Sequence record: PQ671644.1
Length of the DNA: 64,000 nucleotides
Reading direction: 5' to 3' (one strand)
Origin: Escherichia phage DCP80
Below the pieces are notes generated by a model. That model was not told where the DNA came from. It searched no databases and was given only the letters and a program-made list of their open reading frames with translations. Positions 27,905-47,238 of this stretch are shown here, one piece after another. The number at the start of each line of letters is the position of its first letter. The first letter of the stretch is position 1. The position numbers and the translations under genes are program-made.

Positions 27905-28215
27905 TTCTTGTCCAGTAGTTGTTGGTAAAATTCGATATGAGCATAAACATCTTGAATCCCGTGTAGGTAATCATCAAAGGTGATGTCCAGGTCTTCAAAG
28001 AAGTTATGATAAATTTCTTGTAGTTTGGTATAACCGTTTTCGTTAGTCATAAGTACCTCGTTGTTTTCATAATTTTATTTATACTGATTAATACTGGTTT
28101 AAATGGCGCCACAACGTGGTTCTGGATATACTATGTTTCTTCAGAACAGATTTCTTATCTTTACGACGAGCATTTTTATACTCGTCTGCAATTTGATTTA
28201 ACTTCTCGTTGGTCA

Positions 28216-30288: not shown

Positions 30289-30609
30289 TTATTTATAACG
30301 GGATTTATTCATCCATTCAAATATGCCAGGGTTCCATTCGATGTTACCCATCGCTACATAATGATTGATTGCTTCTCGCAGAGACACCTGGAAGAATTCG
30401 GATTCGTCAAGTAATGAAACAATGATTTCCCCTTGTGCCTGTAAATCATCAACTGTCATCATGGAAAGAATTTCATATGCTGATTGAATTTCGTCTTCTG
30501 TGAAATCTGTGTCGAACCAATCATTAAGGTTATCATCAGATTTGTAATTATTGTAATAAGCCATACCTTCGATAACCAGATTGATAATTTCATTTACGTT
30601 GTTCATAAT
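30289..30609 (-). CDS. Hypothetical acidic protein
   Basis: ~106 aa from ATG near 30609; track ORF 30289..30768 reads through the N-run. Confidence 0.4.
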   Translation of the reverse strand: MMNNVNEIINLVIEGMAYYNNYKSDDNLNDWFDTDFTEDEIQSAYEILSMMTVDDLQAQGEIIVSLLDESEFFQVSLREAINHYVAMGNIEWNPGIFEWMNKSRYK

Positions 30610-30710
30610 TTTCTCTTTGTGTTTGGTTGATATGATAATGATACACCCTTTTGATGAGGTTGTAAACCCCTTATTGCAAATACATCTGGCATTGAAACAA
30701 ATAAATGCCA

Positions 30711-30720
30711 NNNNNNNNNN
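30711..30720. other. Assembly gap (N10), scaffold joint
   Basis: Run of N after the repeated terminal 111 bp. Confidence 0.9.
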
Positions 30721-30839
30721 CTTTGACCTTGACAATAGTTCCAAGGTAAGCGCCATGATACCAAACATCCCAACCCTCTTGAGTAGGTTCTACACAAGCG
30801 CGCAATTCATTAACAATATTCAGCTTATTCATAATTTCC

Positions 30840-31448
30840 TCACTTTAAGATGTTAATAACATGTTGAATGTTTTCAGTTGACATAACGTTGTCAATGTAG
30901 GTATTCAATCCACCCACTTTAACGCTAAATCCCACGTCTGTAAACTGTTTTACTATCTTTTGTTCAGTATTATACGCATGTACGCGAATCTGACCATCAC
31001 GACGAACATCAATCTGTTTTAATGTCTTGACGCGCTTGAACTTCACAATCAGATTGCTGCGGTCTTCTGAAATGCTCTTAAAGTCAATACCAATAGACAA
31101 CAATTGCTCTTTGATATATTCTGCAGTCGCTTCCATTTCATCAGTCACACCGCGTTTTGTTCTTGTCTTCTTCACTTCCAGAAGGTCAGGATTATTTTCA
31201 TTCGCCCAAAGTTCAGCTGCATCCAGAATAAGGTCAACACCCTTTTCTGTAATCATCAAACCATCACCAGAAGCTTCAACATAGTTGTTATTCAACAAGG
31301 TCTGCACACTATCAATTGATGTGTTCTGCTGGTCTAAAACAACCTCTGGACTCACGAAGTTGTTTTTGTATACAAACACCAGAGCATTGACATCAGTCTC
31401 ATGCAGCGCGTTCTGGGAGCATTTAACGATATAATTTAACTTGTTCAC
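30840..31448 (-). CDS. motA: Middle transcription activator MotA-like
   Basis: 202 aa; SGDGLMITEKG and overall layout resemble T4 MotA; next to gene 52 as in T4. Confidence 0.65.
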   Translation of the reverse strand: MNKLNYIVKCSQNALHETDVNALVFVYKNNFVSPEVVLDQQNTSIDSVQTLLNNNYVEASGDGLMITEKGVDLILDAAELWANENNPDLLEVKKTRTKRGVTDEMEATAEYIKEQLLSIGIDFKSISEDRSNLIVKFKRVKTLKQIDVRRDGQIRVHAYNTEQKIVKQFTDVGFSVKVGGLNTYIDNVMSTENIQHVINILK

Positions 31449-31450
31449 AA

Positions 31451-31678
31451 TTATCCCTTAATAGATTTCATATAATTTGATGCATATGATTGTACCACAG
31501 TACGTTTCATATGGGAAGTAGAAACAATCACATCAATCGCTTGTTTGCGTTCTTCTTTAGAATTCGCCAGTTTGAACATATCAAAGTAGTAGTAACAAGC
31601 TTCTTTGTTAGATTTGAATTTAGCGTTGATGTATTCTTGACCTTCATTCTGTTGTGCAGTAAACATTTTATTCTCCAA
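31451..31678 (-). CDS. Hypothetical protein
   Basis: 75-aa ORF; probable ATG start a few codons in, with SD GGAG. Confidence 0.4.
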   Translation of the reverse strand: MENKMFTAQQNEGQEYINAKFKSNKEACYYYFDMFKLANSKEERKQAIDVIVSTSHMKRTVVQSYASNYMKSIKG

Positions 31679-31765
31679 AGTTTTTATGATTCATTGTGTA
31701 ACTCAGTATGGAATCATTATGCCTCATGACCATCTGGTTGTACACTACTTTTTTAAAATAAAAAA

Positions 31766-31783
31766 GGACCCCGAAGGGTCCTA
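31766..31783 (-). terminator. Rho-independent terminator on minus strand
   Basis: GGACCCTTCGGGGTCC then T-run on minus strand. Confidence 0.65.
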
Positions 31784-31875
31784 GTCTTTATCTATCTTAT
31801 TACCAATAAACATACCAACAATCACACCTGCGATTGCCGCAAAAATACAAAGCAATGCAAACTCAACTCCAAAAC

Positions 31876-33255
31876 TCATAGAGCCTCCAAATCATTAAGG
31901 TATTCAGTTTTAACATCAGTTGTCTTCCAGTACTCATGCTCAGCTTTCTTAGCCTTTGCTTCGTCTGCAAGCTTCTTGGCTTCATCAGAGGTCATATGGT
32001 AGATGTTCATTGCCACTAACTTCTCTGCATAATCGCCATATATTTCACTCGCCTGGAGTTCCTCAATCAACTTCTTACGAGGTTTCCCCTGGATAACAAC
32101 CTTACCGTCAATCACTTCTTTAATAAAGAAGACTTTTGCCCGGGCCAGTTTAAATGCTGCTTCAGTTTCTTTAATCTTACTGTCAATTCGCACTTGAACA
32201 TAAGTCTTACGGACATCAACGAAATCGCGAATCAGGTCAAGCGTGTTGGTGTATTCAGCCAGCTTGCCTTTGTGATTAAGCACTGTTAAGTTTTGGGAGA
32301 GCTTCTCAATCAGACCAAAGTCTTTCATGATTTTCTCATGATTTTCTTCTTCAGTACCATCCAGCTTGTATTCTTTGCGGAATTTAATCTTAAACCCAAA
32401 ACCATGCTCGCCGCAGTTATCTTTCCAGGTGATAAAACCTTTCTCTTCCAGCGGGTCCAGGATTTTACTTGTATACTTTTCTAGGTTCCATTGGACCGGG
32501 ATTTCAGTAATTTCCATTTGGGTCCTGGAAGTCATTTTGTACGTGCCATGAAGCTCATACTTACCAGGCTCTTCCAGCTCAACCACTTCACCACGGAATT
32601 CTGGATATTTTACTTTCGGCGCAACCGGCTCACGACCTTCCACGATAGCTTTAACAGCTTCCTTGACGTCCTGGAACGAATGAGGAAGAATATCAGTAGC
32701 GAAGCCAACAGCAATCCCAGAAGTGGCGTTAAGTAATACAGTAGGAATAACAGGAAGATAAAAAGCAGGAGGCTTATGTTCTTCATCAGGATGGACCGGA
32801 GCATATTCTGTATCCTTAAACAAGTTATAAAAGTTCTTTGAAACCCGTGCGAATACATAACGAGCTGATGATGCTTCTGGCACCATTCTGGAACCAAAGT
32901 TGCCTTGTCCATCAAACATGGGGTATTCATTTTTATATGTTGCGACCAGACCAGAAGTTGCTTCTTCCGCTGATGCTTCACCATGGTGATAACCATAATC
33001 AGCTACGCCGCCGGCGATGGATGCAACTTTATGGAATTTATTCTTATCACCGCGCGCCAGGTCTAATGCTCTCGCCATAACAAATCTGTGAACTGGTTTA
33101 AAACCATCAATCATGTTTGGGATTGCGCGACCTTCCACAGTGTAGATAGCATATGATAATGCTTCCACATCAATAATGTCTTTTAGACTGCGTGGGTTAA
33201 GGGTCCCCATTGAATCACTGAACTGTTTGGACATCATACTTAAAACGTCAGACAT
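31876..33255 (-). CDS. 52: DNA topoisomerase II medium subunit (GyrA-like), gp52
   Basis: 459 aa; AIPNMIDGFKPVHRFV and catalytic Tyr region typical of type II topo A subunit. Confidence 0.85.
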   Translation of the reverse strand: MSDVLSMMSKQFSDSMGTLNPRSLKDIIDVEALSYAIYTVEGRAIPNMIDGFKPVHRFVMARALDLARGDKNKFHKVASIAGGVADYGYHHGEASAEEATSGLVATYKNEYPMFDGQGNFGSRMVPEASSARYVFARVSKNFYNLFKDTEYAPVHPDEEHKPPAFYLPVIPTVLLNATSGIAVGFATDILPHSFQDVKEAVKAIVEGREPVAPKVKYPEFRGEVVELEEPGKYELHGTYKMTSRTQMEITEIPVQWNLEKYTSKILDPLEEKGFITWKDNCGEHGFGFKIKFRKEYKLDGTEEENHEKIMKDFGLIEKLSQNLTVLNHKGKLAEYTNTLDLIRDFVDVRKTYVQVRIDSKIKETEAAFKLARAKVFFIKEVIDGKVVIQGKPRKKLIEELQASEIYGDYAEKLVAMNIYHMTSDEAKKLADEAKAKKAEHEYWKTTDVKTEYLNDLEAL

Positions 33256-33396
33256 ATATCACCTTACCAGATTAACGAATGTACTGCCATTATAGCATCA
33301 GAAATAAAAAGCACAACCTGCACTAATGCAAATACAACTCCATAATATAGCGCTACCAATAAGGCAGCAAGGGCTAACGAGTAGCCCAGGATTTTC

Positions 33397-33579
33397 TTAA
33401 TCATTTTTAATCATCTTAAGTAAACCGACAAAAGTAGAAAGAATCCAGCCAATAAACAGAAAACTTAAGAATAGCGGACCAGGGGTCCAGACTCCTAAAA
33501 AGAAGCAGACTGAACAAACCACGGCAATAATAAGTTCGATAAAAGCCAGAATAATCATATTTTCCTCAAGGGCGTCCAA
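33397..33579 (-). CDS. Small membrane protein
   Basis: 60 aa, two hydrophobic helices. Confidence 0.35.
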
Positions 33580-33647
33580 AGACGCCAGTTAATTTAAGAT
33601 TATGGCGATGCCATTGCATCACATGTTCATTATGGAAATTACTCATA

Positions 33648-34097
33648 TTAATAACTCTGCAGAATGAATTTAAAGTTATCAGCAAGCATGCGATTCATTT
33701 CTGAAAGGGTCTGGCAATCAGAACTATGTGAGCGAGTGAACGCCATCGCAATTTGACCTTTACCATAACCAGTTGTCAGGGGTTTCATTTTAGAAACTGG
33801 AACAAACAGGACTTCATAGATAACACCATTGTTCGCCATTGTGCGCGACAGTTGCGAACGCTGTTTGCGGATGTGACTTAATACAGTGTCAAACCCTTGT
33901 TGTGAACGTTGGTTACCAACGTAAAAACGTGCAGCAACAATACGTGATTCGCCTTCACCCTTAACTACAAAATAAAAACCTGGTTGAGTGATAGCTTCTT
34001 TAGTTGGACGCCCTGCAACATAATTACCATTATGGATATAAGCAACAGTGGTAGCGCCAGCATTCAGTACGTCACGACGGGTCATGTAAGTATTCAT
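33648..34097 (-). CDS. ndd: Nucleoid disruption protein Ndd-like
   Basis: [26 protein letters not shown] and MLADNFKF match T4 Ndd as recalled. Confidence 0.7.
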
Positions 34098-34170
34098 ATT
34101 AATTTCCTCAGTAAGTTAAAGTTTTGTGCTCCAGTGGGGTCATTATACTCTGACCCCAAGAGTATGTACA

Positions 34171-34515
34171 CTATTTTTGAAGTTGTTCTAAAATAAATCC
34201 GCTGGTGTAAAGGCTTGCATTATACAGGCGGTCAAGAGACAACGAATCCAATCCATAAGCTTCGCGAATTGCATTGATAGCACTCTCATAACTTGTATAA
34301 TAAACATCGCGATAATCGCGGTCCATAGTCATGCGGAACTTAATAAATTTGTAGAAACCAGTTTCAGGGTCCTGATAGAATGCAAATTCTGCAGACATCA
34401 AATTTTTAAGGTTAACAGCTTTTGTACCACCTGAATAACTTAAATCAAATGCTTCTGATACGCTAATCTGTTTAAAGAACATAATGTTGCGATTACCAAA
34501 AAATACTTTAGACAT
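34171..34515 (-). CDS. Hypothetical protein
   Basis: 114-aa ORF. Confidence 0.4.
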   Translation of the reverse strand: MSKVFFGNRNIMFFKQISVSEAFDLSYSGGTKAVNLKNLMSAEFAFYQDPETGFYKFIKFRMTMDRDYRDVYYTSYESAINAIREAYGLDSLSLDRLYNASLYTSGFILEQLQK

Positions 34516-34530
34516 AATATTTTCCTCAGC

Positions 34531-34776
34531 TTATTCAGGGTCTACTGCGCCATCCCACAAGTCAACTTCTTCTGATGATTCCATCAGTTCATCAACTGTG
34601 AAGCACTCAGTATTATTTTCAATTGCAAAACGCTTCTGATAAAAAGGATAATCCAAACAGTTTTCAGTGCGCACTGGACGCTCGCTGTTATCCATTAAAG
34701 GCGAAATGCGAATCAGTTGTTGACCATTACCCAGGACAAATTTTTCACCAACTGCAACGTCTTTAAAAAGTTTCAT
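34531..34776 (-). CDS. Hypothetical protein
   Basis: 81-aa ORF. Confidence 0.4.
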   Translation of the reverse strand: MKLFKDVAVGEKFVLGNGQQLIRISPLMDNSERPVRTENCLDYPFYQKRFAIENNTECFTVDELMESSEEVDLWDGAVDPE

Positions 34777-34979
34777 TGCTTAGCTCCATTCCAAATTACA
34801 TCAACAACAGACTTCAAACCATTATCCTGGATTTGTGTGAATACTTCAGCAGCAATCCAGACCTGGAAACCAATCATTGCAATGGCACCAATGAAAATCA
34901 GGATAATCATTGCCACAATAAACTTGAACATAAAGTCAAAGCGACGATTGGATTTCTGAAAGTGTGAATTGTAATTCAT
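34773..34979 (-). CDS. Small membrane protein
   Basis: Start moved to internal Met MNYNSHF; homolog truncated by gap at 49790. Confidence 0.4.
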   Translation of the reverse strand: MNYNSHFQKSNRRFDFMFKFIVAMIILIFIGAIAMIGFQVWIAAEVFTQIQDNGLKSVVDVIWNGAKQ

Positions 34980-35132
34980 AATATTATCCTCAAAAGAAAT
35001 AGTTAAAGTAAACACGTACATGGTCAATCATAAAAATAATTGGGAAAATGCTCAGGACAACAAACAATACAAACATGTTCCAAATGGCTTTAAGTAACTT
35101 TTTCATAATCATCTCCAGTAGTTGATAGGTTC

Positions 35133-35161
35133 ATTATACTACAACCACCGGAGATGTACAC
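35133..35161 (-). promoter_or_regulatory. Sigma70-type early promoter (-35 GTGTACA, -10 TATAAT) with conserved leader CTATCAACTACTGGAG
   Basis: Minus-strand AAAAGAGTGTACA-16 nt-TATAAT; same cassette recurs at many minus-strand genes. Confidence 0.55.
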
Positions 35162-35251
35162 TCTTTTATGCAAGTTTCATTAATAATAAACTAAAACAAA
35201 CGCAAATTACTGGAATACACAACATCCAGATAAGACACCAGGTTTTGCTGC

Positions 35252-35518
35252 TCAAAATATCACCTCTTTTATTTCAATCAGACCCCTGTGCAATGCGGTG
35301 CGAAGGTCATAAAGAATATCTATGCCATCAACATTATCCAGTTTTCCATCAATAAGCTTTTTTAAATCATGCTTTGATGCAACTAGCGGGCGAAGAAATT
35401 TACATTCAGAAAGAGACAATTCTGTAGTAATATCATCACCATCACCTGACGCATCATACATGGCAGCAACAACCATACCTGTAACTTTGTGCTTGGCGTA
35501 ATATAATTTAATATCCAT
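35252..35518 (-). CDS. Hypothetical protein, member of small paralog family
   Basis: MDIKLYYAKHKVTG; paralogs at 48689 and 48949. Confidence 0.4.
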   Translation of the reverse strand: MDIKLYYAKHKVTGMVVAAMYDASGDGDDITTELSLSECKFLRPLVASKHDLKKLIDGKLDNVDGIDILYDLRTALHRGLIEIKEVIF

Positions 35519-35762
35519 TCTGTTTTCCTCACGCATAACGATTGTATGTATTTTTACGACAAGCGTAAAATTGACGCTCAGTAACTGCAAAACTTTTTCC
35601 GCGTTGTTGCATTAATTTAAAAAATTCAGTAATATCGCCATTAACTTCAAGGTATAAAGTCATTGCATATTGAGCAGGTTTCATTTTATTCTCCAGTCTG
35701 TTTGGTAACTCAGTATGGAATCATTATGCACTGACTCCATACTGATGTACACTACTTTTTAA

Positions 35763-36038
35763 TTAATTGTGCATTTGTTCTTTAACTTCTTTATATGCGC
35801 CAACTGCATTCACGACCCCAGTAAAATCTGCAGTCCCACGATAGAGATAGAAAGCAATTTCAGTCAGGTGGTAGACTTCAAATTCTGAAAGATAAACGAT
35901 AACGTCATAATATGCAACTTGACCCTGGACTTCGTTGAATGCCACATCAAAAATTTCATGGGTTGGAAAATTGATGTTGTTGTTTTTGAGTGCTTGGATA
36001 AGAATTTGTTTGATGTTGTGAGTAGTAACGTGTTCCAT
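35763..36038 (-). CDS. Hypothetical protein
   Basis: Start set at MEHVTTH after promoter cassette. Confidence 0.4.
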   Translation of the reverse strand: MEHVTTHNIKQILIQALKNNNINFPTHEIFDVAFNEVQGQVAYYDVIVYLSEFEVYHLTEIAFYLYRGTADFTGVVNAVGAYKEVKEQMHN

Positions 36039-36085
36039 GATAATGTCCTCATTTGTTGGTATGAGGACATTATTACACGGTTGGT

Positions 36086-36679
36086 TCAGCTTGTAAACCG
36101 GTGATAGGGAAATTTTTCTTCTGAACAAGAACGGAGGTACCAGCCATCCCCTTGTGACTTCTGCACAAGACCAGACTCAGGAACGAAAGCACCAGGCCCA
36201 GCAAGGAATTTTGGTTTAAATCTATAACCTTTGAGAGTCTCTTTTACATCGAGCATAATCATAAGGTCAGCAAGCTTGTGCTGCATAAAAGGACCAAGAT
36301 TAATCCCGTAACCATGCGGATAATCGCCCTGGTGGCCAGTGTGTACGGATATCCATTTGGAACCAGACTGGTGGGTCTTGACTTCGATTCTTACCCCTTC
36401 CTTCGAAACTACATCAAATGCAAAGGAATAAGGATTATCGTAATCTTCGTCGCCGCCACATAAAAAACCAGAAGTCCATTTAGCAATAGCTTGTTCAGCC
36501 ATTGTAGCAACCATGCATCTTTGCATGACTTGCTCACGGTCCTGACCTGGGTCTTTACGCAATGAATACCGGGTAGTGTCTACAATCTTCTGCAGGGATT
36601 CGGGGTTTAAGTCTTCCTTTGTATAAAGAAAGGAGGGCATCTTTTTCAGATGCTCCCAGGTTTTACTCTTCTGAATCAT
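36086..36679 (-). CDS. denB: Endonuclease IV DenB-like
   Basis: AIAKW, YDNPY, FAFDV.SKEG.RIEVK.HQSGSKWI and GLVQKS.G.GWYLR resemble T4 DenB; sits between rIIB and ndd as in T4. Confidence 0.6.
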   Translation of the reverse strand: MIQKSKTWEHLKKMPSFLYTKEDLNPESLQKIVDTTRYSLRKDPGQDREQVMQRCMVATMAEQAIAKWTSGFLCGGDEDYDNPYSFAFDVVSKEGVRIEVKTHQSGSKWISVHTGHQGDYPHGYGINLGPFMQHKLADLMIMLDVKETLKGYRFKPKFLAGPGAFVPESGLVQKSQGDGWYLRSCSEEKFPYHRFTS

Positions 36680-36932
36680 TTACGACCTCATCGATACCGA
36701 CGATTCCACGGATGTGAAGCTCACCATAATACAAACGGTCATTAGCATCAAATGTATCAGAATCCGGGTCAGGGAATTCCCCAACAACTACTTCATCACA
36801 TTCCAACCAACCATAGTGAACATCACCTTCATGCTTGATGAGCTTACCGCAGTAAACTATTCCTGCATAATGATGACCCCGGAGATTTGAAACTTTGATG
36901 TCACGGTCTGACACATTGAAATGCTTAATCAT
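36663..36932 (-). CDS. Hypothetical protein
   Basis: 89-aa ORF. Confidence 0.4.
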   Translation of the reverse strand: MIKHFNVSDRDIKVSNLRGHHYAGIVYCGKLIKHEGDVHYGWLECDEVVVGEFPDPDSDTFDANDRLYYGELHIRGIVGIDEVVNDSEE

Positions 36933-36935
36933 AAT

Positions 36936-37133
36936 TTATTCACCAAAATAAGAGATACGAGTTGCCAGTACATGAGCATAAGCGCCCATCGCGTCTAACT
37001 GTGCAATCAAAAGACCTTGTTGACGAGCATCGAGAGTTTCAAAAACACCGCCCTTAATAAATTCTTCAAGAGCATTGATTTTCAAAACCAGCTGGTCATG
37101 TTCTTCAACTACACGTGCTTGGAAACCTAACAT
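36936..37133 (-). CDS. Hypothetical protein
   Basis: 65-aa ORF. Confidence 0.4.
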   Translation of the reverse strand: MLGFQARVVEEHDQLVLKINALEEFIKGGVFETLDARQQGLLIAQLDAMGAYAHVLATRISYFGE

Positions 37134-37146
37134 AAAGCCTCATTAG

Positions 37147-37160
37147 GGGCCGAAGCCCCG
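37147..37160. terminator. Terminator-type hairpin GGGGCCGAAGCCCC
   Basis: In the rIIB-downstream intergenic gap where arm 2 carries an HNH gene. Confidence 0.5.
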
Positions 37161-37166
37161 ATTAAT

Positions 37167-38141
37167 TTAGAATTGTTCAGTTACATCATCAAGGACCAGG
37201 TAACCACAGACCCTCATCTTACTATCACCATAATCCACCGGGATACTTACAACATCACGCGGGTGAACTTTACAGGATACGATGCGTCCATCACCATGAC
37301 CAAAACCACTTCCAATATAACCTTTAGAGCAAACATGCAACCCAGTTGAACAAGTTTGTTCGTCATTATCGTTCACACGAGAGCGCGGCATTTTAACATA
37401 TTGACCAGGGCTGTTGTCGAATGTATTTGAGTGACAATCTTTGTAAGTTGCACGAACCATTTTCCATGCGATGAAATGACCGTCTTCGGTGATTTCGATA
37501 TCGTTCGCAACCAGGAAGTCAAACAAACGCTGTACGGCTTTCTCACTCGGGTTCTCAAGGAGATTCTCAAGGAACGGCAGATAGAATTCAAAGTCTTCGC
37601 CATTTTGCATTGAATCAATGATACGAGTAACCAGGCCAGAGCGTAGTTCAATTCCCTGATAGAACAGACTACCACCTTCAATACGCACATCGCCTTTCAC
37701 ATATTTTTGTACTGCAGCTTTGATTGAGATAAACTCGATAGCATCATCAAAACGAGATTCAATCAATGCCTGAATAATATCATTAAAGTGTTTATGGTCT
37801 TTTGTGGCGTTCCAGACTGTGCGACCTTCAGTGATGGAAACGAATTTGCTTGATGCGTTCCATACGATTTCTGGGCGGCTACCGCCGATTGTATCTTCAA
37901 CGACCGGAACTTCAACCATTACTGTCACCGGAGCATTAATCGCCACACCAACAGCTGCTTTCAGTGATGCAGAAATGGTTTTAGATAATTTTGATTCTTT
38001 ATCATTTTTCAAAACACGGCGAATGGTGTCAACCGATACACCGAAATTATCTGCTAGTTCCTGTTGGGTATAATTACCAGTTTTATAAAGAGAAACTACC
38101 TGGTTTTGGTCAAATTTGGATAAAGCTTTAATATTAAACAT
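37167..38141 (-). CDS. rIIB: rIIB protein
   Basis: MFNIK...GNYTQQELA..GVSVDTIRRVLKN and C-terminal HVCSKGYI...VHPRDVVSIP match T4 rIIB. Confidence 0.85.
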   Translation of the reverse strand: MFNIKALSKFDQNQVVSLYKTGNYTQQELADNFGVSVDTIRRVLKNDKESKLSKTISASLKAAVGVAINAPVTVMVEVPVVEDTIGGSRPEIVWNASSKFVSITEGRTVWNATKDHKHFNDIIQALIESRFDDAIEFISIKAAVQKYVKGDVRIEGGSLFYQGIELRSGLVTRIIDSMQNGEDFEFYLPFLENLLENPSEKAVQRLFDFLVANDIEITEDGHFIAWKMVRATYKDCHSNTFDNSPGQYVKMPRSRVNDNDEQTCSTGLHVCSKGYIGSGFGHGDGRIVSCKVHPRDVVSIPVDYGDSKMRVCGYLVLDDVTEQF

Positions 38142-38142
38142 A

Positions 38143-40377
38143 TTATTCCTTATTGGCCGCTTCCACGGCCTTCATGATTTGAGCAACGTTCTGTACTTGT
38201 TCAGTTGACATAGCGTTACGGTTATATAAAAAGTGTGAAACAATCGGGTGATTCTTTTCAAATTCAAAAACCATTTTATCGCTTGTTACCGAAGCGTTTT
38301 TGGTCAGGTCGTCATAAATCTTATTACAAAGGACCAGCGTTTCCTGCATGGTCTTATCAACCGTTCCACTGTTATATGCGTTATAAGCAAAGAACTTATT
38401 GAACTGCATTAGTTCGGCATAGTCAGTATTCACATCTTTCTGAACATCTTTTGCATAAAAATACTTGAACATAAAATTCAGTTCTGCATATTCAGACAGG
38501 ATAGGAATATAATAACGCGAACGGCTTGAAGCGGCAATGTACTGGTCTGCATCAACCGCATCAATCAATTCCACATAACGATTGACTGCAGCTTCAATCA
38601 GACAATCGCACTGCGCCAGCTTGGTAACCTTTTTCTGAAGCTGTGGACGAATAACACAGAATTCATTGATTTCCAACAGATTCGCCAGTTTGCACAATGT
38701 CTGGGTCCCGAAGGTCGTGGTGCCATATTCTTGATTCAACGGGGAAATGCTACTGCGGTTAATGAATACAGCATAACCATCGATTTCCTCTGCATCAGCT
38801 GCACATGTAAATTCTTCAACAGACTGCCAGCGACCATTGGTTTTAGTCCAACGAATCAATGATGGAGTCTTTGACTTAATGCGCGCTTTCGGGTCAGCAA
38901 CCGGAATCCAGTCTTTTACAAGGGCAGTCAGTTCAGACGTACGATAGATATTAACCGTATCGCCTTCAAATCGTTCCTGGAGTTGAACCATCAACCGTGT
39001 CTGAATTTCGCTGGTCGGGTCAACAAACAGTAAACTACTACCCTGACGAGTCGGGACTTTACCAGATGCAATAAGCTTTTTAGCTTTTGCGCTGGTATCA
39101 TACAACATTGAACTGATACCACGAATCATCGCAATTCGCCCTTTAACATCGTCAATAACAATGTTCAAGGTATCATTCTGAATACCAAACATGCTCGTCA
39201 GACTTGCCGTGTTCGAGCTTGAGCTTGAGTTGCGCAGACGTTTCAGACGAGTGTCACGATAGATATCATAGACAACCCCGGCATTAATAAGGTCTTTGTC
39301 CAGCTCGAACATTTCGTACATCTGGTTAAAGGTCAATTGTGATTTCGTAAATTTCGTTTCAGCATTACGAGCTTTCAGAAAATTACGAGCTTCATAATTC
39401 AGATTCTGCAATTCGCGATATGTATGGCGAAGACATTCTGATTCCTGCCATTTCTTACAATCGTCTTCCATGACTTTCTTATCAAGGGCTTCAATACGTT
39501 CAACGATATTTGCGACCGTACGTTTGTCCAGTGATAACGCTTCGCGAGAAGGTGCAATATCCAACGAACCCATCGGGAACTTAATAAAGACAACATCATT
39601 TTTGGCAGTCATCCAGGTTTTCTTGGTGTAACCATCACCAATCGGATAAACAATTCCGCCATAAATTGCATAAAGTCCATAACGTTCTGGACTGCTATAA
39701 TTAATACGCGCTGGAGCATAGTAATCATCAAATTCCGGGAAGTATTCAATTTCGCCAGCGCCTTGCACTTCAGCCAGCCCAGCAAATGGACGCATGATAT
39801 ACGCAATCTCGTAGCGGAACTTACCAAAATCATTACTATCAACCGGGACAACAACTTCAATCCCTGTGCGGTCACCAGGTTTCATTGGTTCACTAAAGGT
39901 TGGCTTAATCTGTGGACCATCGCCGTCCATATAAGCGACATATCCATTAACTTGACCATCATGATATGAAATCAGGCTAAACGTCTCGGTATAACTGAAC
40001 GGAGATTTAGAACCCAGACCAAAGCCACCAATAAAATCGTTGGATTCGGCCTTGGATGATGCAAAGAAACTGTTATACAGACCTGGAGTATTTTCATCAC
40101 CACGAATCTGGAAATCACTCATACCCGGACCAAAGTCACGACATACAAAACGTGGGTCCAGTTCACCAGGAGCTTGCACAATGAATTTATCCTGACATCC
40201 ATTGAGCATATGAGCATCAATCATATTGGTAATCAGCTCACGAACAACCGCGCGCACCTTGTTTGTATAAAGGTCGCTGGTCAGAATCTTAAACACCTTT
40301 GGAGATGCCTGGATTGTGAATGCTGATGCCTTGGCACCATTACCAAGGATTGTTTCCTTTTCAGTTTCTAAAATCAT
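38143..40377 (-). CDS. rIIA: rIIA protein
   Basis: MILETEKETILGNGAKASAFTIQASPKVFKIL...VVRELITNMIDAH matches T4 rIIA N-terminus. Confidence 0.9.
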   Translation of the reverse strand: MILETEKETILGNGAKASAFTIQASPKVFKILTSDLYTNKVRAVVRELITNMIDAHMLNGCQDKFIVQAPGELDPRFVCRDFGPGMSDFQIRGDENTPGLYNSFFASSKAESNDFIGGFGLGSKSPFSYTETFSLISYHDGQVNGYVAYMDGDGPQIKPTFSEPMKPGDRTGIEVVVPVDSNDFGKFRYEIAYIMRPFAGLAEVQGAGEIEYFPEFDDYYAPARINYSSPERYGLYAIYGGIVYPIGDGYTKKTWMTAKNDVVFIKFPMGSLDIAPSREALSLDKRTVANIVERIEALDKKVMEDDCKKWQESECLRHTYRELQNLNYEARNFLKARNAETKFTKSQLTFNQMYEMFELDKDLINAGVVYDIYRDTRLKRLRNSSSSSNTASLTSMFGIQNDTLNIVIDDVKGRIAMIRGISSMLYDTSAKAKKLIASGKVPTRQGSSLLFVDPTSEIQTRLMVQLQERFEGDTVNIYRTSELTALVKDWIPVADPKARIKSKTPSLIRWTKTNGRWQSVEEFTCAADAEEIDGYAVFINRSSISPLNQEYGTTTFGTQTLCKLANLLEINEFCVIRPQLQKKVTKLAQCDCLIEAAVNRYVELIDAVDADQYIAASSRSRYYIPILSEYAELNFMFKYFYAKDVQKDVNTDYAELMQFNKFFAYNAYNSGTVDKTMQETLVLCNKIYDDLTKNASVTSDKMVFEFEKNHPIVSHFLYNRNAMSTEQVQNVAQIMKAVEAANKE

Positions 40378-40384
40378 GTTTTTC

Positions 40385-40594
40385 TCACTTTATGTTACGT
40401 TTGATTAATTCTGCAACTTCAAGAAGTTCATCCTTTGTTGCGGTGTCTGAAGCTATTTTAATACGGATTTCTTTGAAGCGTTCTTTAAACTCTTCAGCTT
40501 CTCTTATATCAAAAAAACGTTGGATAACACGGTATTCTTTATGGATAGCCTTATCAAACAGTTCCATATTAACTTTGAAGTTCGTCATTTCCAA
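40385..40594 (-). CDS. Hypothetical protein upstream of rIIA
   Basis: 69-aa ORF, same in both arms. Confidence 0.4.
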   Translation of the reverse strand: MEMTNFKVNMELFDKAIHKEYRVIQRFFDIREAEEFKERFKEIRIKIASDTATKDELLEVAELIKRNIK

Positions 40595-40853
40595 TCTCCT
40601 GTAATATTTTTCTCATACTACGCATGGTAGCTTTATGTTCTTGGTCATGGTATATCAATGCAAGGAGTGCTTCAATTCGCTCCTCAGGGACCTTCTGGCC
40701 AGCCTTAATTCTCATGGCTGATGTTCTTACAGCTAACAAGTAACTTCGCTTCCTGTCGTTATCTGGGAGCCCCTGCACTTTCCTCAGACCTGCTTCCATA
40801 ATACACCGTGCGACATTTTGCAGATTAACTAAACTTCCGTCAGACATAATCAT
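40569..40853 (-). CDS. Hypothetical protein
   Basis: 94-aa ORF, same in both arms. Confidence 0.4.
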   Translation of the reverse strand: MIMSDGSLVNLQNVARCIMEAGLRKVQGLPDNDRKRSYLLAVRTSAMRIKAGQKVPEERIEALLALIYHDQEHKATMRSMRKILQEIGNDELQS

Positions 40854-40910
40854 ATTTTCACCTCAAAGACATCTTAACACACTTTTTGTGGCTTGTACAT
40901 AATAAAAAGG

Positions 40911-40928
40911 TCTCCCGAAGGAGACCAA
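40911..40928. terminator. Terminator hairpin GGTCTCCCGAAGGAGACC
   Basis: Inverted copy at 42992. Confidence 0.6.
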
Positions 40929-40983
40929 ATTTTATTCTACTTTATAGACTTGACCATACGCCATGAAAGTTTCACCTTCCCAG

Positions 40984-41040
40984 GTTTCGCACGNNNNNNN
41001 NNNNNNNNNNNNNNNNNNNNNNNNNNNNNNNNNNNNNNNN
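40984..41040. other. Assembly gap (N57), scaffold joint
   Basis: N-run; removes 5' end of gene 39. Confidence 0.9.
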
Positions 41041-41044
41041 ATTC

Positions 41045-42793
41045 TTGTTTGGTGAATATAAGTCCGTAAGCTATGTTCCTGGTATTGTAAAACTGATTGA
41101 TGAAATTATCGATAACTCTGTTGATGAAGCAATTCGCACCAGTTTTAAATTCGCCAATAAAATTGATGTTCAAATTAAAGGCAATAAGGTTATCGTTGAA
41201 GATAACGGACGCGGTATTCCACAAGCAATGGTTGTCGACCAGACCGGTGAACAAATACCTGGCCCTGTCGCGGCATGGACTATTCCAAAGGCCGGTGGCA
41301 ACTTCGGTGATGATGCTGAGCGTAAAACTGGCGGGATGAATGGCGTTGGTAGTAGTTTAACCAACATCTTCTCTGTAACATTTGCGGGTGCAACTTGTGA
41401 TGGTGAGAATGAAATTGTCGTACGTTGTTCTAACGGAATGGAAAATAAGAGCTGGAATAAAGTTCCCGCTTCGAAGAAAGAACATGTGAAGGCTAAGACT
41501 GGTACGGTTGTTTCCTTTATTCCCGAATTCAGCCATTTTGAAACTAATGGACTCGACGAGACTTATGACGCCATCACATTGGACCGTCTACAGACTCTTG
41601 CGGTTGTTTATCCGGATATTCAGTTTACCTTTAATGGCAAAAAGGTTGATGGTAACTTCAAGAAGTTCGCCAAGCAATTTGGAACCGAAGTTGTTATCCA
41701 GGAAACTGATACGGTATCGATGGCCTTTACGACTAGCCCGGATGGTTTCCGTCAGTTGACTTATGTCAACAACATTCATACAAAGAATGGCGGACACCAC
41801 GTTGAATGTGTTATGGATGATATCTGTGAACATCTTCAACCAGCCATTAAACGCAAATATAAAGGCATCGAGGTGACCAAGGCACGAGTTAAAGAATGTC
41901 TCACCATGCTTATGTTCATCCGCGATATGAGCAACATGCGATTTGATTCCCAGACCAAAGAGCGATTGACTTCTCCGGCTGGTGAAATTCGAAATCACAT
42001 TAAGATTGATGCTAAGAAAATCGCGCAAGCTATTCTGAAAAATGAACCGCTGATTATGCCGATTGTTGAAGCTGCATTAGCCCGTAAATTGGCTGCAGAA
42101 AAAGCAGCAGAGACTAAAGCGAATAAGAAAGCTTCGAAGGCTAAGGTACAAAAGCATATCAAAGCCAACGAATGGGGTAACGACAAACTTGAAACGACTC
42201 TATTCCTGACCGAAGGGGATTCTGCAACGGGTCCATTTATCAAGGTTCGCGACCGTGAATTGCAAGGTGCTTATCCATTACGTGGTAAGTTTAAAAACAC
42301 ATGGGGTCTGAAAGCTGTTGACGTTATGAAGAACGCTGAAGCCTTTGATGTGTGTGCAATTACTGGGTTAACGATTGGACAACCGGCCAAGAATATGAAT
42401 TACCGAAACATTGCTATCATGACAGATGCGGATGTGGATGGTGTCGGTAGTATCTATCCATCGTTATTGGCGTTTTTCAGTAACTGGCCAGAGCTGTTCC
42501 ATGAAGGACGAATTCGCTTTGTGAAAACTCCTGTTATTATTGCGCAGCTCAAAGACAAACAAGAATGGTTCTATTCTCTTCCTGACTATGAAGAAGCTAA
42601 GGATAAACTTCCGAAGCACACCATCCGATATATCAAGGGGCTTGGTTCTCTGGAAGATTCCGAGTATAAACGCGTATTGCTCGAACCAGTATTCGAAGTT
42701 GTCCAATTGCCTGATAACTGGAAAGAACTGTTCGAAATGTTATTCGGTAAAGATTCACAACAGCGTAAAGATTGGATGAATGCGACGCTATAA
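41045..42793 (+). CDS. 39: DNA topoisomerase II large subunit (GyrB-like), gene 39 with gene 60 region fused; 5' end missing
   Basis: VPGIVKLIDEIIDNSVDEAIRT, EDNGRGIP and GGMNGVGSS ATPase motifs; TOPRIM MTDADVDG; C-terminus continuous. Confidence 0.85.
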   Translation: MFGEYKSVSYVPGIVKLIDEIIDNSVDEAIRTSFKFANKIDVQIKGNKVIVEDNGRGIPQAMVVDQTGEQIPGPVAAWTIPKAGGNFGDDAERKTGGMNGVGSSLTNIFSVTFAGATCDGENEIVVRCSNGMENKSWNKVPASKKEHVKAKTGTVVSFIPEFSHFETNGLDETYDAITLDRLQTLAVVYPDIQFTFNGKKVDGNFKKFAKQFGTEVVIQETDTVSMAFTTSPDGFRQLTYVNNIHTKNGGHHVECVMDDICEHLQPAIKRKYKGIEVTKARVKECLTMLMFIRDMSNMRFDSQTKERLTSPAGEIRNHIKIDAKKIAQAILKNEPLIMPIVEAALARKLAAEKAAETKANKKASKAKVQKHIKANEWGNDKLETTLFLTEGDSATGPFIKVRDRELQGAYPLRGKFKNTWGLKAVDVMKNAEAFDVCAITGLTIGQPAKNMNYRNIAIMTDADVDGVGSIYPSLLAFFSNWPELFHEGRIRFVKTPVIIAQLKDKQEWFYSLPDYEEAKDKLPKHTIRYIKGLGSLEDSEYKRVLLEPVFEVVQLPDNWKELFEMLFGKDSQQRKDWMNATL

Positions 42794-42796
42794 ATA
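42789..42796 (+). promoter_or_regulatory. TATAAATA late-type promoter
   Basis: GCTATAAATAG after gene 39 stop, before SD AGGAGA. Confidence 0.4.
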
Positions 42797-42991
42797 GATG
42801 TGGGAGAATATTCTCCCGCTACTAGGAGACAATATGACTAAATACTGGATTACACTCGCTACCGGTGAATATGGTTTTCTCTGGGCAGAGAAAAAGCCTT
42901 TGTTTGCAGAATTTGTAACAATCACGTGCGAAACCTGGGAAGGTGAAACTTTCATGGCGTATGGTCAAGTCTATAAAGTAGAATAAAATTT

Positions 42992-43014
42992 GGTCTCCTT
43001 CGGGAGACCTTTTT
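42992..43014 (+). terminator. Rho-independent terminator
   Basis: GGTCTCCTTCGGGAGACC plus TTTTTATT. Confidence 0.7.
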
Positions 43015-43064
43015 ATTATGTACAAGCCACAAAAATTGTGTTAAGATGTCTTTGAGGTGAAAAT

Positions 43065-43349
43065 ATGATTATGTCTGACGGAAGTTTAGTTAATCTGCAG
43101 AATGTCGCACGGTGTATTATGGAAGCAGGCCTGAGGAAGGTACAGGAGCTCCCAGATAGCGACAGGAAGCGAAGTTACTTGTTAGCTGTAAGAACAGCAG
43201 CCATGAGCATTAAGGCTGGCCAGAAGGTCCCTGAGGAGCGAATTGAAGCACTTCTTGCATTGATATACCATGACCAAGAACATAAAGCTACCATGCGTAG
43301 TATGAGAAAAATATTACAGGAGATTGGAAATGACGAACTTCAAAGTTAA
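43065..43349 (+). CDS. Hypothetical protein (homolog of 40569..40853)
   Basis: 94 aa, 4 substitutions versus arm 1. Confidence 0.4.
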   Translation: MIMSDGSLVNLQNVARCIMEAGLRKVQELPDSDRKRSYLLAVRTAAMSIKAGQKVPEERIEALLALIYHDQEHKATMRSMRKILQEIGNDELQS

Positions 43350-43533
43350 TATGGAGCTGTTTGATAAAGCTGTTCATAAAGAATACCGCGTTATCCAACG
43401 ATTTTTTGATATAAGAGAAGCTGAAGAGTTTAAAGAACGCTTCAAAGAAATCCGTATTAAAATAGCTTCAGACACCGCAACAAAGGATGAACTTCTTGAA
43501 GTTGCAGAATTAATCAAACGTAACATAAAGTGA
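43324..43533 (+). CDS. Hypothetical protein (homolog of 40385..40594)
   Basis: 69 aa. Confidence 0.4.
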   Translation: MEMTNFKVNMELFDKAVHKEYRVIQRFFDIREAEEFKERFKEIRIKIASDTATKDELLEVAELIKRNIK

Positions 43534-43540
43534 GAAAAAC

Positions 43541-45775
43541 ATGATTTTAGAAACTGAAAAGGAAACAATCCTTGGTAATGGTGCCAAGGCATCAGCATTC
43601 ACAATCCAGGCATCTCCAAAGGTGTTTAAGATTCTGACCAGCGACCTTTATACAAACAAGGTGCGCGCGGTTGTTCGTGAGCTGATTACCAATATGATTG
43701 ATGCTCATATGCTCAATGGCTGTCAGGATAAATTCATTGTTCAAGCTCCTGGTGAACTGGACCCACGTTTTGTGTGTCGTGACTTTGGTCCAGGTATGAG
43801 TGATTTCCAGATTCGTGGTGATGAAAATACGCCAGGTCTGTATAACAGTTTCTTTGCATCATCCAAGGCTGAATCCAATGATTTTATTGGTGGCTTCGGC
43901 TTGGGTTCTAAATCTCCGTTTAGTTATACAGAGACGTTTAGCCTGATTTCATATCATGATGGACAAGTTAATGGTTATGTCGCTTATATGGACGGTGATG
44001 GTCCACAGATTAAGCCAACCTTTAGCGAACCAATGAAACCTGGTGACCGCACAGGGATTGAAGTTGTTGTCCCGGTTGATAGTAATGATTTCGGTAAGTT
44101 CCGTTATGAGATTGCATATATCATGCGTCCATTTGCTGGACTGGCTGAAGTGCAAGGCGTAGGCGAAATTAATTACTTCCCAGAATTTGATGATTATTAT
44201 GCTCCAGCGCGTATTAATTATAGCAGTCCAGAACGTTATGGACTTTATGCAATTTATGGTGGAATTGTTTATCCGATTGGTGATGGTTACACCAAGAAAA
44301 CCTGGATGACTGCCAAAAATGATGTTGTCTTTATTAAGTTCCCAATGGGTTCGCTGGATATTGCACCTTCTCGCGAAGCGTTATCACTGGACAAACGTAC
44401 GGTCGCAAATATCGTTGAACGTATTGAAGCCCTTGATAAGAAAGTCATGGAAGATGATTGTAAGAAATGGCAGGAATCAGAATGTCTCCGCCATACATAT
44501 CGCGAATTGCAGAATCTGAATTATGAAGCTCGTAATTTTCTGAAAGCTCGTAATGTTGAAACGAAATTTACGAAATCACAATTGACCTTTAACCAGATGT
44601 ACGAAATGTTCGAGCTGGACAAAGACCTTATTAATGCCGGGGTTGTCTATGATATCTATCGCGATACTCGTCTGAAACGTCTGCGTAACGCAAGCTCAAG
44701 CTCGAACACGGCAAGTCTGACGCGCATGTTTGGTATTCAGACTGATACCTTGAACATTGTTATTGATGATGCTAAAGGGCGAATTGCGATGATTCGTGGT
44801 ATCAGTTCAATGTTGTATGATACCAGCGCGAAAGCTAAAAAGCTTATTGCATCTGGTAAAGTCCCGACTCGTCAGGGTAGTAGTTTACTGTTTGTTGACC
44901 CAACCAGCGAAATTCAAACACGGTTGATGGTTCAACTCCAGGAACGATTTAAAGGCGATACGGTTAATATCTATCGTACGTCTGAACTGACTGCCCTTGT
45001 AAAAGACTGGATTCCGGTTGCTGACCCGAAAGCGCGCGTTAAGTCAAAGACTCCATCATTGATTCGTTGGACTAAAACTAATGGTCGCTGGCAGTCTGTT
45101 GAAGAATTTACATGTGCAGCTGATGCAGAGGAAATCGATGGTTATGCTGTATTCATTAACCGCAGTAGCATTTCCCCGTTGAATCAAGAATACGGCACCA
45201 CGACCTTCGGGACCCAGACATTGTGTAAACTGGCAAACCTGTTGGAAATCAATGAATTCTGTGTTATTCGTCCACAGCTTCAGAAAAAGGTTACCAAGCT
45301 GGCGCAGTGCGATTGTCTGATTGAAGCTGCAGTCAATCGTTATGTGGAATTGATTGATGCGGTTGATGCGGACCAGTACATTGCCGCTTCAAGCCGTTCG
45401 CGTTATTATATTCCTATCCTGTCTGAATATGCAGAACTGAATTTTATGTTCAAGTATTTTTATGCAAAAGATGTTCAGAAAGATGTGAATACTGACTATG
45501 CCGAACTAATGCAGTTCAATAAGTTCTTTGCTTATAACGCATATAACAGTGGAACAGTTGATAAGACCATGCAGGAAACATTGGTCCTTTGTAATAAGAT
45601 TTATGACGACCTGACCAAAAACGCTTCGGTAACAAGCGATAAAATGGTTTTTGAATTTGAAAAGAATCACCCGATTGTTTCACACTTTTTATATAACCGT
45701 AACGCTATGTCAACTGAACAAGTACAGAACGTTGCTCAAATCATGAAGGCCGTGGAAGCGGCCAATAAGGAATAA
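43541..45775 (+). CDS. rIIA: rIIA protein (second copy)
   Basis: 744 aa, about 8 substitutions versus 38143..40377. Confidence 0.9.
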   Translation: MILETEKETILGNGAKASAFTIQASPKVFKILTSDLYTNKVRAVVRELITNMIDAHMLNGCQDKFIVQAPGELDPRFVCRDFGPGMSDFQIRGDENTPGLYNSFFASSKAESNDFIGGFGLGSKSPFSYTETFSLISYHDGQVNGYVAYMDGDGPQIKPTFSEPMKPGDRTGIEVVVPVDSNDFGKFRYEIAYIMRPFAGLAEVQGVGEINYFPEFDDYYAPARINYSSPERYGLYAIYGGIVYPIGDGYTKKTWMTAKNDVVFIKFPMGSLDIAPSREALSLDKRTVANIVERIEALDKKVMEDDCKKWQESECLRHTYRELQNLNYEARNFLKARNVETKFTKSQLTFNQMYEMFELDKDLINAGVVYDIYRDTRLKRLRNASSSSNTASLTRMFGIQTDTLNIVIDDAKGRIAMIRGISSMLYDTSAKAKKLIASGKVPTRQGSSLLFVDPTSEIQTRLMVQLQERFKGDTVNIYRTSELTALVKDWIPVADPKARVKSKTPSLIRWTKTNGRWQSVEEFTCAADAEEIDGYAVFINRSSISPLNQEYGTTTFGTQTLCKLANLLEINEFCVIRPQLQKKVTKLAQCDCLIEAAVNRYVELIDAVDADQYIAASSRSRYYIPILSEYAELNFMFKYFYAKDVQKDVNTDYAELMQFNKFFAYNAYNSGTVDKTMQETLVLCNKIYDDLTKNASVTSDKMVFEFEKNHPIVSHFLYNRNAMSTEQVQNVAQIMKAVEAANKE

Positions 45776-45776
45776 T

Positions 45777-46754: not shown

Positions 46755-47238
46755 ACAAACAATTGCTAAAGATGGCTCGGCTCGTGGTATTGTCCACGGG
46801 CTAGGTCACACGCCTGAATACATTGTATGGATTGGCATGAAAGCTCGGTGTTGCAATCCAACACATATTAGTTATTCTCGATATGGCGGTCGGGGTATCA
46901 CTGTTTGCGATGAATGGCTGCATGATTTTGAAAGATTTTATACAGATATGGGGCCACGACCCACTGACAAACATCAACTTGACCGAACAGATAACGATAA
47001 AGGGTACTCTCCCGATAACTGCAGATGGGTTAGTCCAGGCGAGAATGCTTTAAATAAGCGCCCGTATAATAACAACAAGTCTGGATTTAAAGGAGTCTCG
47101 TTTGATAAACGAGCTTTGAATAAACCATGGCGAGCCACTATTATGCGAAATAAAAAACAAATTCAAGTCGGAGCTTTTGCAACTCCAGAAGAAGCAAATG
47201 AAGCTCGATTAAAATATATGGAAGAACACAATGTCTAA
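46747..47238 (+). CDS. HNH homing endonuclease with AP2-like DNA-binding domain
   Basis: GGRGITVCDEW...LDRTDNDKGYSPDNCRWV then KSGFKGVSF...WRA; absent from equivalent site in arm 1. Confidence 0.7.
   Translation: MIKQTIAKDGSARGIVHGLGHTPEYIVWIGMKARCCNPTHISYSRYGGRGITVCDEWLHDFERFYTDMGPRPTDKHQLDRTDNDKGYSPDNCRWVSPGENALNKRPYNNNKSGFKGVSFDKRALNKPWRATIMRNKKQIQVGAFATPEEANEARLKYMEEHNV

Follow-up and report, generated by a model that had tools for sequence, protein, structure and literature searches.

In T4-like phages, many small early genes are preceded by a strong early promoter and a short leader, and this type of cassette has already been described as a hotspot of gene shuffling. The published T4 early consensus comprises GTTTAC at -36 to -31 and an A-rich segment at -40 to -44. 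In relatives, a C-rich segment at -3 to -1 is described, along with "additional regions of consensus", and an extended -10 (TGn) is typical of T4 early promoters. The composite elements known as PeSLs (promoter-early stem-loops) are another described system to which such cassettes can be compared. In RB49 and phi1, mini-circles between PeSLs have been shown experimentally and a stem-loop arrangement with the -10 in the loop has been reported; a composite terminator-promoter form has been described in PST and T4, and an exchange between PST and T4 in the ndd-denB region is linked to PeSLs (Comeau et al. 2014). Here we analysed a window of 64,000 nucleotides, i.e., the whole stretch taken from the Escherichia phage DCP80 record (PQ671644.1), in which a cassette of this kind is located upstream of an ndd.4 homolog and recurs before other small early genes.

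The probable early-promoter cassette upstream of the ndd.4 homolog and its copies

The unit under study lies on the minus strand (35169-35104) and reads ATAAAAGA-GTGTACA-(16 nt)-TATAAT-GAACCT-ATCAACTAC-TGGAG-ATGATTATG. It begins with the A-rich, UP-element-like tract ATAAAAGA (35162-35169), followed by the -35 element GTGTACA (35155-35161), for which the T4 consensus is GTTTACA, and by a 16-nt spacer (35139-35154) which, according to folding, is also the 5' arm of a hairpin pairing with the leader and the Shine-Dalgarno sequence. The -10 element TATAAT (35133-35138) is found in the loop of this hairpin. Six nucleotides past it stands the conserved block ATCAACTAC (35118-35126), the putative transcription start and initially transcribed sequence, judging from the identical register in the copies (5 loci of the window, about 15 loci of the Gaprivervirus VR7 and the T4 motA, ndd.4 and ndd.6 promoters). 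The Shine-Dalgarno sequence GGAG follows at 35113-35116. The downstream gene (34990-35106, minus strand), identified as an open reading frame and by homology, encodes 38 amino acids (MKKLLKAIWN...). Its relatives are annotated as Ndd.4 in VR7, JS98 and T4, and tblastn matches to it were obtained in 594 T-even-type records. The second ATG of ATGATTATG (35106) has proper Shine-Dalgarno spacing from GGAG and agrees with the 38-aa Ndd.4 annotated in VR7.

T4 promoters were located by scanning about 57 kb of T4 sequence. The regions upstream of motA, ndd.4 and ndd.6 have GTTTACA-N17-TACTAT-N6-ATCAACTAC/T, the motA site being one that we take to be a mapped early promoter. Since the T4 ndd.4 upstream region has this arrangement, the cassette at 35104-35169 is, by sequence, the ortholog of the T4 ndd.4 promoter. 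In the same way, the cassette at 58060 is by sequence the ortholog of the T4 sp promoter, which has ATAAACTACTGAGGAG. An ATCAACTAC-like leader was found in only about 4-6 of the approximately 14 early-type promoters scanned in T4, so the block marks a subset of promoters, and the idea that it is a universal part of the T4 early consensus was rejected on this 57-kb scan.

The original prediction held that the same unit recurs upstream of many minus-strand early genes. This was borne out, as all eight other loci proposed are such cassettes. In each, an A-tract precedes GTGTACA or GTTTACA, a spacer of 16-18 nt leads to a hexamer resembling TATAAT, and the short leader that follows contains a Shine-Dalgarno sequence and ends at an ATG. 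The motif is in excess over shuffled sequence. In the window, the 16-mer leader query CTATCAACTACTGGAG gave 7 matches with at most 3 mismatches for 0.49 expected, a number reached in none of 100 shuffles; GTGTACA-N17-TATAAT gave 11 matches with at most 2 mismatches for 2.5 expected (0/100 shuffles). Every cassette is co-oriented with its downstream gene, and each of the loci proposed occupies the interval from the stop of one open reading frame to the ATG of the following one. At these loci, 26-31 nt separate the -10 from the ATG when the leader is of the ATCAACTAC type, and 35-49 nt when it is not (17-49 nt over all window copies, the motif closing at its 3' end with the Shine-Dalgarno sequence and the start codon). 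Since these distances are consistent and each ATG opens a program-listed open reading frame, motif copies inconsistently placed relative to start codons, which would speak against the unit, were not found.

A GTTTAC-like -35 and a TATAAT-like -10, 16-18 bp apart, are present in 15/15 window copies. GTGTACA is the usual -35 variant, four loci having GTTTACA or GCTTACA, and the -10 variants are CATAAT, TATATT, TACTAT and TATTAT. Most copies have an A/T-rich, UP-like tract before the -35 (AAAAAGTAG, AAAATAG or AAAAGAG), and in the aligned copies AAAAAGTAG or AAAGGGG stands ahead of the -35. An extended -10 is absent from most window copies, which lack the T at -15 and the G at -14. The leaders are not uniform, with ATCAACTAC at 5 loci, CATACTGAGTTAC at 3 and neither at 3. 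In type A, ATCAACTAC occurs exactly 6 nt past the -10 (sites 35161/49305, 58060, 58640, 59342 and 63808). Type B reads (C/T)ATAAT-GATTCCATACTGAGTTAC (sites 31745, 35752/48624 and 59034), and its 13-nt block CATACTGAGTTAC is invariant in 13 aligned copies. The sites 34171, 36098 and 40899 have leaders of their own. The conserved leader originally attributed to all copies is thus confined to the five type A loci; 31745, 35752 and 59034 proved to be of type B, and 34171 belongs to neither type. One leader-like match (27910-27925) was set aside as a chance occurrence, being inside a coding region of the siphovirus contig described below, with no promoter upstream.

The minus-strand copies represent eleven distinct loci, and window cassettes are found before the ndd, ndd.4, sp and frd.3 orthologs and before ORFans. 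The B-type cassette at 31664-31782 comprises a terminator hairpin (31765-31782), a T-run, an A-tract, GTGTACA, N17, CATAAT, GATTCCATACTGAGTTAC and GGAGAATAAAATG. Upstream of ndd (34095-34171), consensus -35 and -10 elements are combined with a leader of its own and a hairpin GGGGTC/GACCCC around the -10 (z = -2.6). The B-type cassette at 35682-35752 has a 14-bp hairpin around the -10 (z = -4.8) and a perfect RegB site, directly followed by a 51-aa ORFan. The next one (36036-36098) overlaps the end of denB, has a leader hairpin (z = -6.0) and precedes an HNH-like open reading frame, the VR7ORF288c homolog. At 40851-40926, a terminator hairpin (40909-40926) is followed by TGTACA-N17-TAAGAT, leader and ATG, with a VR7 counterpart at 2764. 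Type A cassettes are found upstream of the sp (spackle) homolog (58000-58060), where VR7 ORF041c and ORF042c are missing immediately upstream; at 58582-58660, with a hairpin GGGGC-TTACA-GCCCC plus T-run, the -35 in the loop (z = -4.2) and a perfect RegB site GGAGAATAAAA at the end; at 59280-59372, with a terminator hairpin and the -10 TACTAT (z = -4.1), this cassette together with an 82-aa open reading frame being an insertion relative to VR7; and upstream of the frd.3 homolog (63746-63808), with an 11-bp hairpin around the -10 (z = -2.9). The remaining B-type cassette (58953-59034) precedes the VR7ORF045c homolog. All of these are on the minus strand.

A scan of the complete VR7 genome required, after the promoter, a Shine-Dalgarno sequence, an ATG and an open reading frame of at least 25 codons. 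This gave 52 matches, 50/52 of them on the early strand, and about 44 cassettes. Exact copies of ATCAACTAC number 13 on the VR7 early strand, all 6 nt past a -10, whereas a 9-mer would be expected about 0.65 times in a genome of this size. Blastn places the B-type cassette at 10-13 sites per Gaprivervirus genome and, outside this genus, mainly in Morganella phage MP1 (4 places, annotated there as promoter); isolated weak matches were obtained in a few further records of coliphages and Shigella phages. The CATACTGAGTTAC leader family gave no Tequatrovirus match by blastn and is absent from the approximately 57 kb of T4 scanned. An element equivalent to the window cassettes is annotated as a predicted early promoter in the fPS-90 record. 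Specific to the VR7-like group are the GTGTACA form of the -35 and the fact that the two leaders, the B block included, are so numerous and so uniform. The proposal that the units are early-promoter cassettes is supported by the T4 architecture, by the match to the T4 motA, ndd.4, ndd.6 and sp promoters, by the early-gene orthologs downstream and by the strand distribution in VR7.

Contigs joined in the window

Runs of N at 30711-30720, 40994-41040, 49791-49800, 56743-56760 and 62887-62940 divide the window into six pieces. The T4-like part has 91-97% identity to the Gaprivervirus VR7, and for the non-siphovirus pieces the identity to VR7-like relatives of T4 (genera Gaprivervirus and Dhakavirus) is 79-97%. 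The T4-like pieces are out of VR7 gene order and neighbouring pieces are not syntenic; the window therefore strings contigs together and does not represent a single continuous genome. An apparent 6-kb inverted repeat with rIIA and rIIB is formed by 34833-40993 and 42925-49790. The corresponding "rII arms", 30721-40993 (minus) and 41041-49790 (plus), both stop exactly at N runs, correspond to one and the same interval of VR7 and have a mutual identity of about 96%. They are contigs joined by N runs, with no real inverted duplication, and most likely represent two co-assembled strain variants. The premise of shuffling between rII arms of one genome thus falls, and the misreading of these arms as a genome feature is corrected. 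Plus-orientation copies had also been announced for the second arm, and they do exist: 43019-43067 (locus 40899), 48278-48340 (locus 36098), 48624-48691 (locus 35752, here with a different, 87-aa ORFan coming next) and 49305-49362 (the ndd.4 cassette). Since the arms are two contigs of the same region, these four are the same loci seen twice and not additional copies.

The first piece (1-30710, about 30.6 kb) is siphovirus-like, encoding a terminase, portal, capsid, tape measure and tail tip of siphovirus type together with lysozyme and HNH genes. No close match to it was found among 50,697 deposited phage records, and PHROG searches with its small minus-strand open reading frames gave almost nothing. 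Its first 111 nt recur unchanged at 30600-30710, the pattern of a circular contig or of a contig that has short terminal repeats. A T-even-type cassette is found on this siphovirus-like contig at 30626-30680 (minus strand, equal to 27-81), with the sequence GTTTACA-ACCTCATCAAAAGGGTG-TATCAT-TATCAT-ATCAAC. It has 85.5% identity over 55 nt to the VR7 cassette 51010-51064 (E = 1e-8 against 2.3 Gb) and falls within the 111-nt terminal overlap. It could result from a cross-family transfer of a promoter cassette or from an assembly effect at a shared repeat.

Predicted hairpins, ribosome-binding sites and RegB sites

The hairpin of the ndd.4 cassette has 17-18 bp and a folding energy of -24.8 kcal/mol (z = -5.6), none of 200 shuffles folding as well. 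In the folded structure, the promoter spacer pairs with CUAUCAACUACUGGAGAUG. The predicted probability that the Shine-Dalgarno GGAG is unpaired is 0.00 in a read-through RNA versus 0.60 in the transcript of the cassette's own promoter. Among the window cassettes, 7/10 have z values of -2.6 or below and 3/10 have no significant hairpin. For the 44 VR7 cassettes the mean z is -1.9 versus -0.26 for random windows (Mann-Whitney p = 2e-8), with 48% of the cassettes and 6% of the random windows below -2. Stems of at least 5 bp occur in 35/44 VR7 cassettes, the commonest layout having the -10 in the loop, as in the PeSLs of RB49 and phi1. As a general property, occlusion of the Shine-Dalgarno sequence specific to read-through RNA is clear in only 5/44 VR7 cassettes, and such masking is accordingly proposed, from the folding model, for the ndd.4 cassette and a few others only.

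The stem of the ndd.4 cassette is kept with another sequence in the Dhakavirus ortholog (UCUCCAUUAG/CUAAUGGAGA) and in a Mosigvirus paralog (UCUCCGGUAGUUG/CAACUACCGGAGA), with three compensatory pairs across Gaprivervirus, Dhakavirus and Mosigvirus. In T2, T4, AR1 and ZCEC14, a stem of 15 bp forms in a different register and likewise covers GGAGGAACAG, the Shine-Dalgarno sequence; the Kanagawavirus ortholog is without the stem. The G-U pairs and the U/C changes opposite G point to a structure at the RNA level. Hairpins that are G+C-rich, followed by T-runs and predicted to be terminator-like occur at 31765-31782, 40909-40926 and about 59353-59372, and one lies over the -35 at 58640. Placed just ahead of the -35 or over it, these stems have the composite terminator-promoter form known from PST and T4. 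The stem at 58640 (58630-58650, minus strand, -35 in the loop) reads GGGGC...GCCCC versus GGGGG...CCCCC at VR7 20740-20765, one pair being changed on both sides; the two-sided change is consistent with selection for the stem. In the region 30721-64000, Rfam gave 0 matches at the gathering score.

In the T4 genes e, soc, 49 and I-TevI, the ribosome-binding site is occluded in read-through transcripts. The ndd.4 hairpin resembles these cases in silico, the promoter being inside the hairpin so that only transcripts starting there would expose the Shine-Dalgarno sequence; it differs from them in that their internal promoter is late or middle, whereas the promoter predicted here is early.

The 3' end of the cassettes can also be compared with the cleavage target of RegB/S1, the single-stranded 11-mer GGAGAAUAAAA and more generally GGAGRAYARAA (Durand et al. 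2006). VR7 encodes regB. An exact GGAGAATAAAA-TG stands at the end of the cassettes 31745, 35752 and 58640 as well as of most B-type copies in VR7, and the site at 59342 is GGAUAAUAAAA, a type of sequence that can be cut by RegB (Durand et al. 2006). The 3' end of many cassettes thus fits the consensus, whereas the GGAGAUGAUUA of the ndd.4 cassette is a poor match to GGAGAAUAAAA.

A model in several steps could be put forward. Immediately after infection, host sigma-70 RNA polymerase would bind three elements, namely the A-rich tract, the -35 in its GTGTACA or GTTTACA form, and the -10. Since the spacing is fixed, transcription would start about 7 nt past the -10, at the A of ATCAACTAC in type A or ATACTGAGTTAC in type B, the predicted 5' ends being the A of ATCAACTAC or ATACTGAG. 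The 5' UTR, only about 20-45 nt long, would lead straight into a GGAG or GAGG Shine-Dalgarno sequence and the start codon (ATG) of a small early gene. Since this Shine-Dalgarno region is in many copies identical to the RegB/S1 consensus GGAGAAUAAAA, the mRNA would be inactivated once RegB is made. The G+C-rich hairpins with T-runs should terminate or attenuate transcription coming from upstream. At the ndd.4 cassette, the spacer is modelled to pair with the leader as well as with the Shine-Dalgarno sequence and the first AUG; a read-through RNA should therefore be untranslatable, only the RNA from its own promoter exposing the ribosome-binding site. Finally, copies share 25-95 nt of near-identical, co-oriented sequence and hence could also be patches for homologous recombination that inserts, deletes or swaps small early genes.

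Probable recombination at cassettes and comparison with known systems

Several junctions in the window bear on this last step. Both flanks of the 31745 cassette follow its VR7 ortholog 162619, and its 17-nt spacer is 17/17 identical to the VR7 paralog 46974. The three cassettes share an identical 47-nt upstream block (terminator, T-run, A-tract and -35) and a 30-nt downstream block, and by sequence the spacer of 31745 is a patch exchanged between paralogous cassettes. The VR7 B cassette 166456 leads directly into ORF287c; in the window, ORFans are found exactly between the leader and the ORF287c homolog, either one of 51 aa (35529-35684) or an unrelated one of 87 aa (48689-48952, plus strand). 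The latter is present at 99% identity in only one other VR7-like record. It also has about 72% nucleotide identity to g268c of Tequatrovirus fPS-90, which is in the equivalent ndd-denB position behind a predicted early promoter, in the region of the PeSL-linked PST-T4 exchange (Comeau et al. 2014), and at this level of identity it is found in many Tequatrovirus phages. Between gene 41 and a B cassette, an A-type cassette plus the 82-aa open reading frame is inserted (59016-59346), the inserted 59342 cassette resembling the VR7 cassette at about 51050. VR7 ORF041c and ORF042c are missing directly upstream of the sp cassette. Overall, 5/10 indel events relative to VR7 touch a cassette, about 1/4 of the gene junctions carrying one (rough binomial p ~0.09); this enrichment is suggestive and not significant alone. 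Of the three differences between the two arms, only one is at a promoter cassette.

Other rearrangements were observed in the window. In another cassette-linked event, the cassette-frd.3 module and the frd.2/ORF254c module (62945-63819, minus strand) are in reverse order relative to VR7. A 140-nt insertion with a small open reading frame (49491-49630, plus strand, versus 34976-34992) is flanked by a 17-nt direct repeat, TGAGGATAATAnTATGA, of the ribosome-binding region, and it appears from this sequence to have arisen by recombination between translation-start sequences and not between promoters. One contig (37134-37174, minus strand, versus 46741-47242, plus strand) is without the 163-aa VR7ORF292c homolog between rIIB and denB.1; this homolog is replaced by a short hairpin, GGGGCTTCGGCCCC, with no promoter cassette involved. 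The segments 50636-50761, 52034-52237 and 62536-62653 are absent from VR7, and none has a recognisable early-promoter cassette adjoining. Small open reading frames (47 and 74 aa) are listed at the first two, ahead of genes 47 and 46, and the third (about 118 nt) follows uvsX.

Taken together, it is very probable that each unit is a T-even-type early promoter with a short leader, forming a PeSL-like cassette that also acts as a recombination patch. The most serious competitor, which we nevertheless consider unlikely, is that the units are independently maintained promoters and ribosome-binding sites, their similarity being due wholly to selection by RNA polymerase, the ribosome and RegB, and the units having no special part in recombination. 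In agreement with it, every conserved block is a known functional element, spacers differ between copies, orthologous promoters retain their leaders from T4 to the window phage, and half of the indels are away from cassettes, one of them using the 17-nt repeat of the ribosome-binding site. Orthologous cassettes are conserved across genera, so that much of the similarity between copies may reflect functional constraint and not recent spread. It does not account for the paralog-identical spacer of 31745 between flanks that follow the ortholog, for ORFans inserted exactly at the leader/gene junction in two contigs, for the cassette-plus-ORF module between gene 41 and the next cassette, or for the mini-circles demonstrated between PeSLs of RB49 and phi1. 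The recombination role of the cassettes is apparently shown by these chimeric cassettes and indel junctions. The suggestion that the cassettes are substrates of shuffling is supported by the PeSL literature, the spacer swap, the ORFan insertions and the cassette-ORF insertion, the excess of indels (5/10) adding only a suggestive argument.

The 13-nt B block, invariant in 13 copies, exceeds the length that a promoter would obviously require, and blastn restricts it to Gaprivervirus, with 10-13 places per genome, and to Morganella phage MP1. This could indicate that the leader blocks ATCAACTAC and CATACTGAGTTAC serve a dedicated regulator, either as its binding sites or as structured RNA elements. 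We regard this as improbable: no Rfam family matched, the block forms no conserved structure in its own transcript, no candidate factor was found, and the first nucleotide of the block coincides with the predicted +1, as would suit a function in initiation or promoter escape. Equally improbable is the combined proposal that ATCAACTAC and CATACTGAGTTAC, especially the Gaprivervirus-specific CATACTGAGTTAC, are sites for a phage or host factor, that the hairpins tie translation to the cassette's own promoter through masking of the Shine-Dalgarno sequence in read-through RNA, and that cassettes move between unrelated phage families. MotA/AsiA-dependent middle promoters would be conceivable insofar as this phage group encodes motA and asiA and the GCTTACA at 58640 is faintly like a MotA box. 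That box, (a/t)(a/t)(a/t)TGCTTtA, is centred at -30, 11-13 nt from the -10, and replaces the -35; every copy has instead a TTGACA-like -35 (TGTACA or TTTACA) 16-18 nt from the -10. The box was found in no copy of the window or of VR7, and the middle-promoter reading, rejected on spacing and sequence, is highly unlikely. Least probable is that the recurrence is an artefact of several contigs joined in one window. The N-separated chain and the four plus-strand copies that duplicate minus-strand loci agree with it, but eleven distinct minus-strand loci and about 44 members in the finished VR7 genome refute it for the whole family, and only the plus-strand copies are explained by it.

With the early-promoter and recombination-patch reading retained, the observation is real and what is already known explains it well: counterparts are known for the A-tract, the -35, the -10, the C-rich -3 to -1 segment, the Shine-Dalgarno/RegB site and the hairpin. 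The analysis yields a clean, annotated set of early-promoter cassettes for VR7-like (Gaprivervirus) T4 relatives, and the base-pair-level spacer exchange and the ORFan insertions at leader/gene junctions give added support to the published cassette-steered shuffling in T4-type phages.

The cassettes share with T4 early promoters the A-rich tract, the GTTTAC-type -35, the 16-18 nt spacer, the TATAAT-like -10, the C-rich -3 to -1 segment and the location upstream of early genes on the early strand. They differ in the -35, which is mostly GTGTACA here and GTTTACA in T4, and in the TGn motif, mostly absent here whereas the T4 copies have GTGG-TACTAT. The ATCAACTAC leader is far more uniform and numerous in the VR7 group, with 13 exact copies in VR7, than in T4. 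Promoter and terminator activity and the formation of mini-circles are putative for the window cassettes. Their stems are more varied than the poly-G/poly-C type of the RB49 PeSLs, and their leaders are much more conserved than those of PST and T4. Like PeSLs (Arbiol et al. 2010; Comeau et al. 2014), they are composites of an AT-rich tract, a promoter, a stem-loop, a Shine-Dalgarno sequence and an ATG, with the stem-loop upstream, between the -35 and -10 elements or across the -10, and they are repeated before small ORFans and present at some indel junctions between close relatives.
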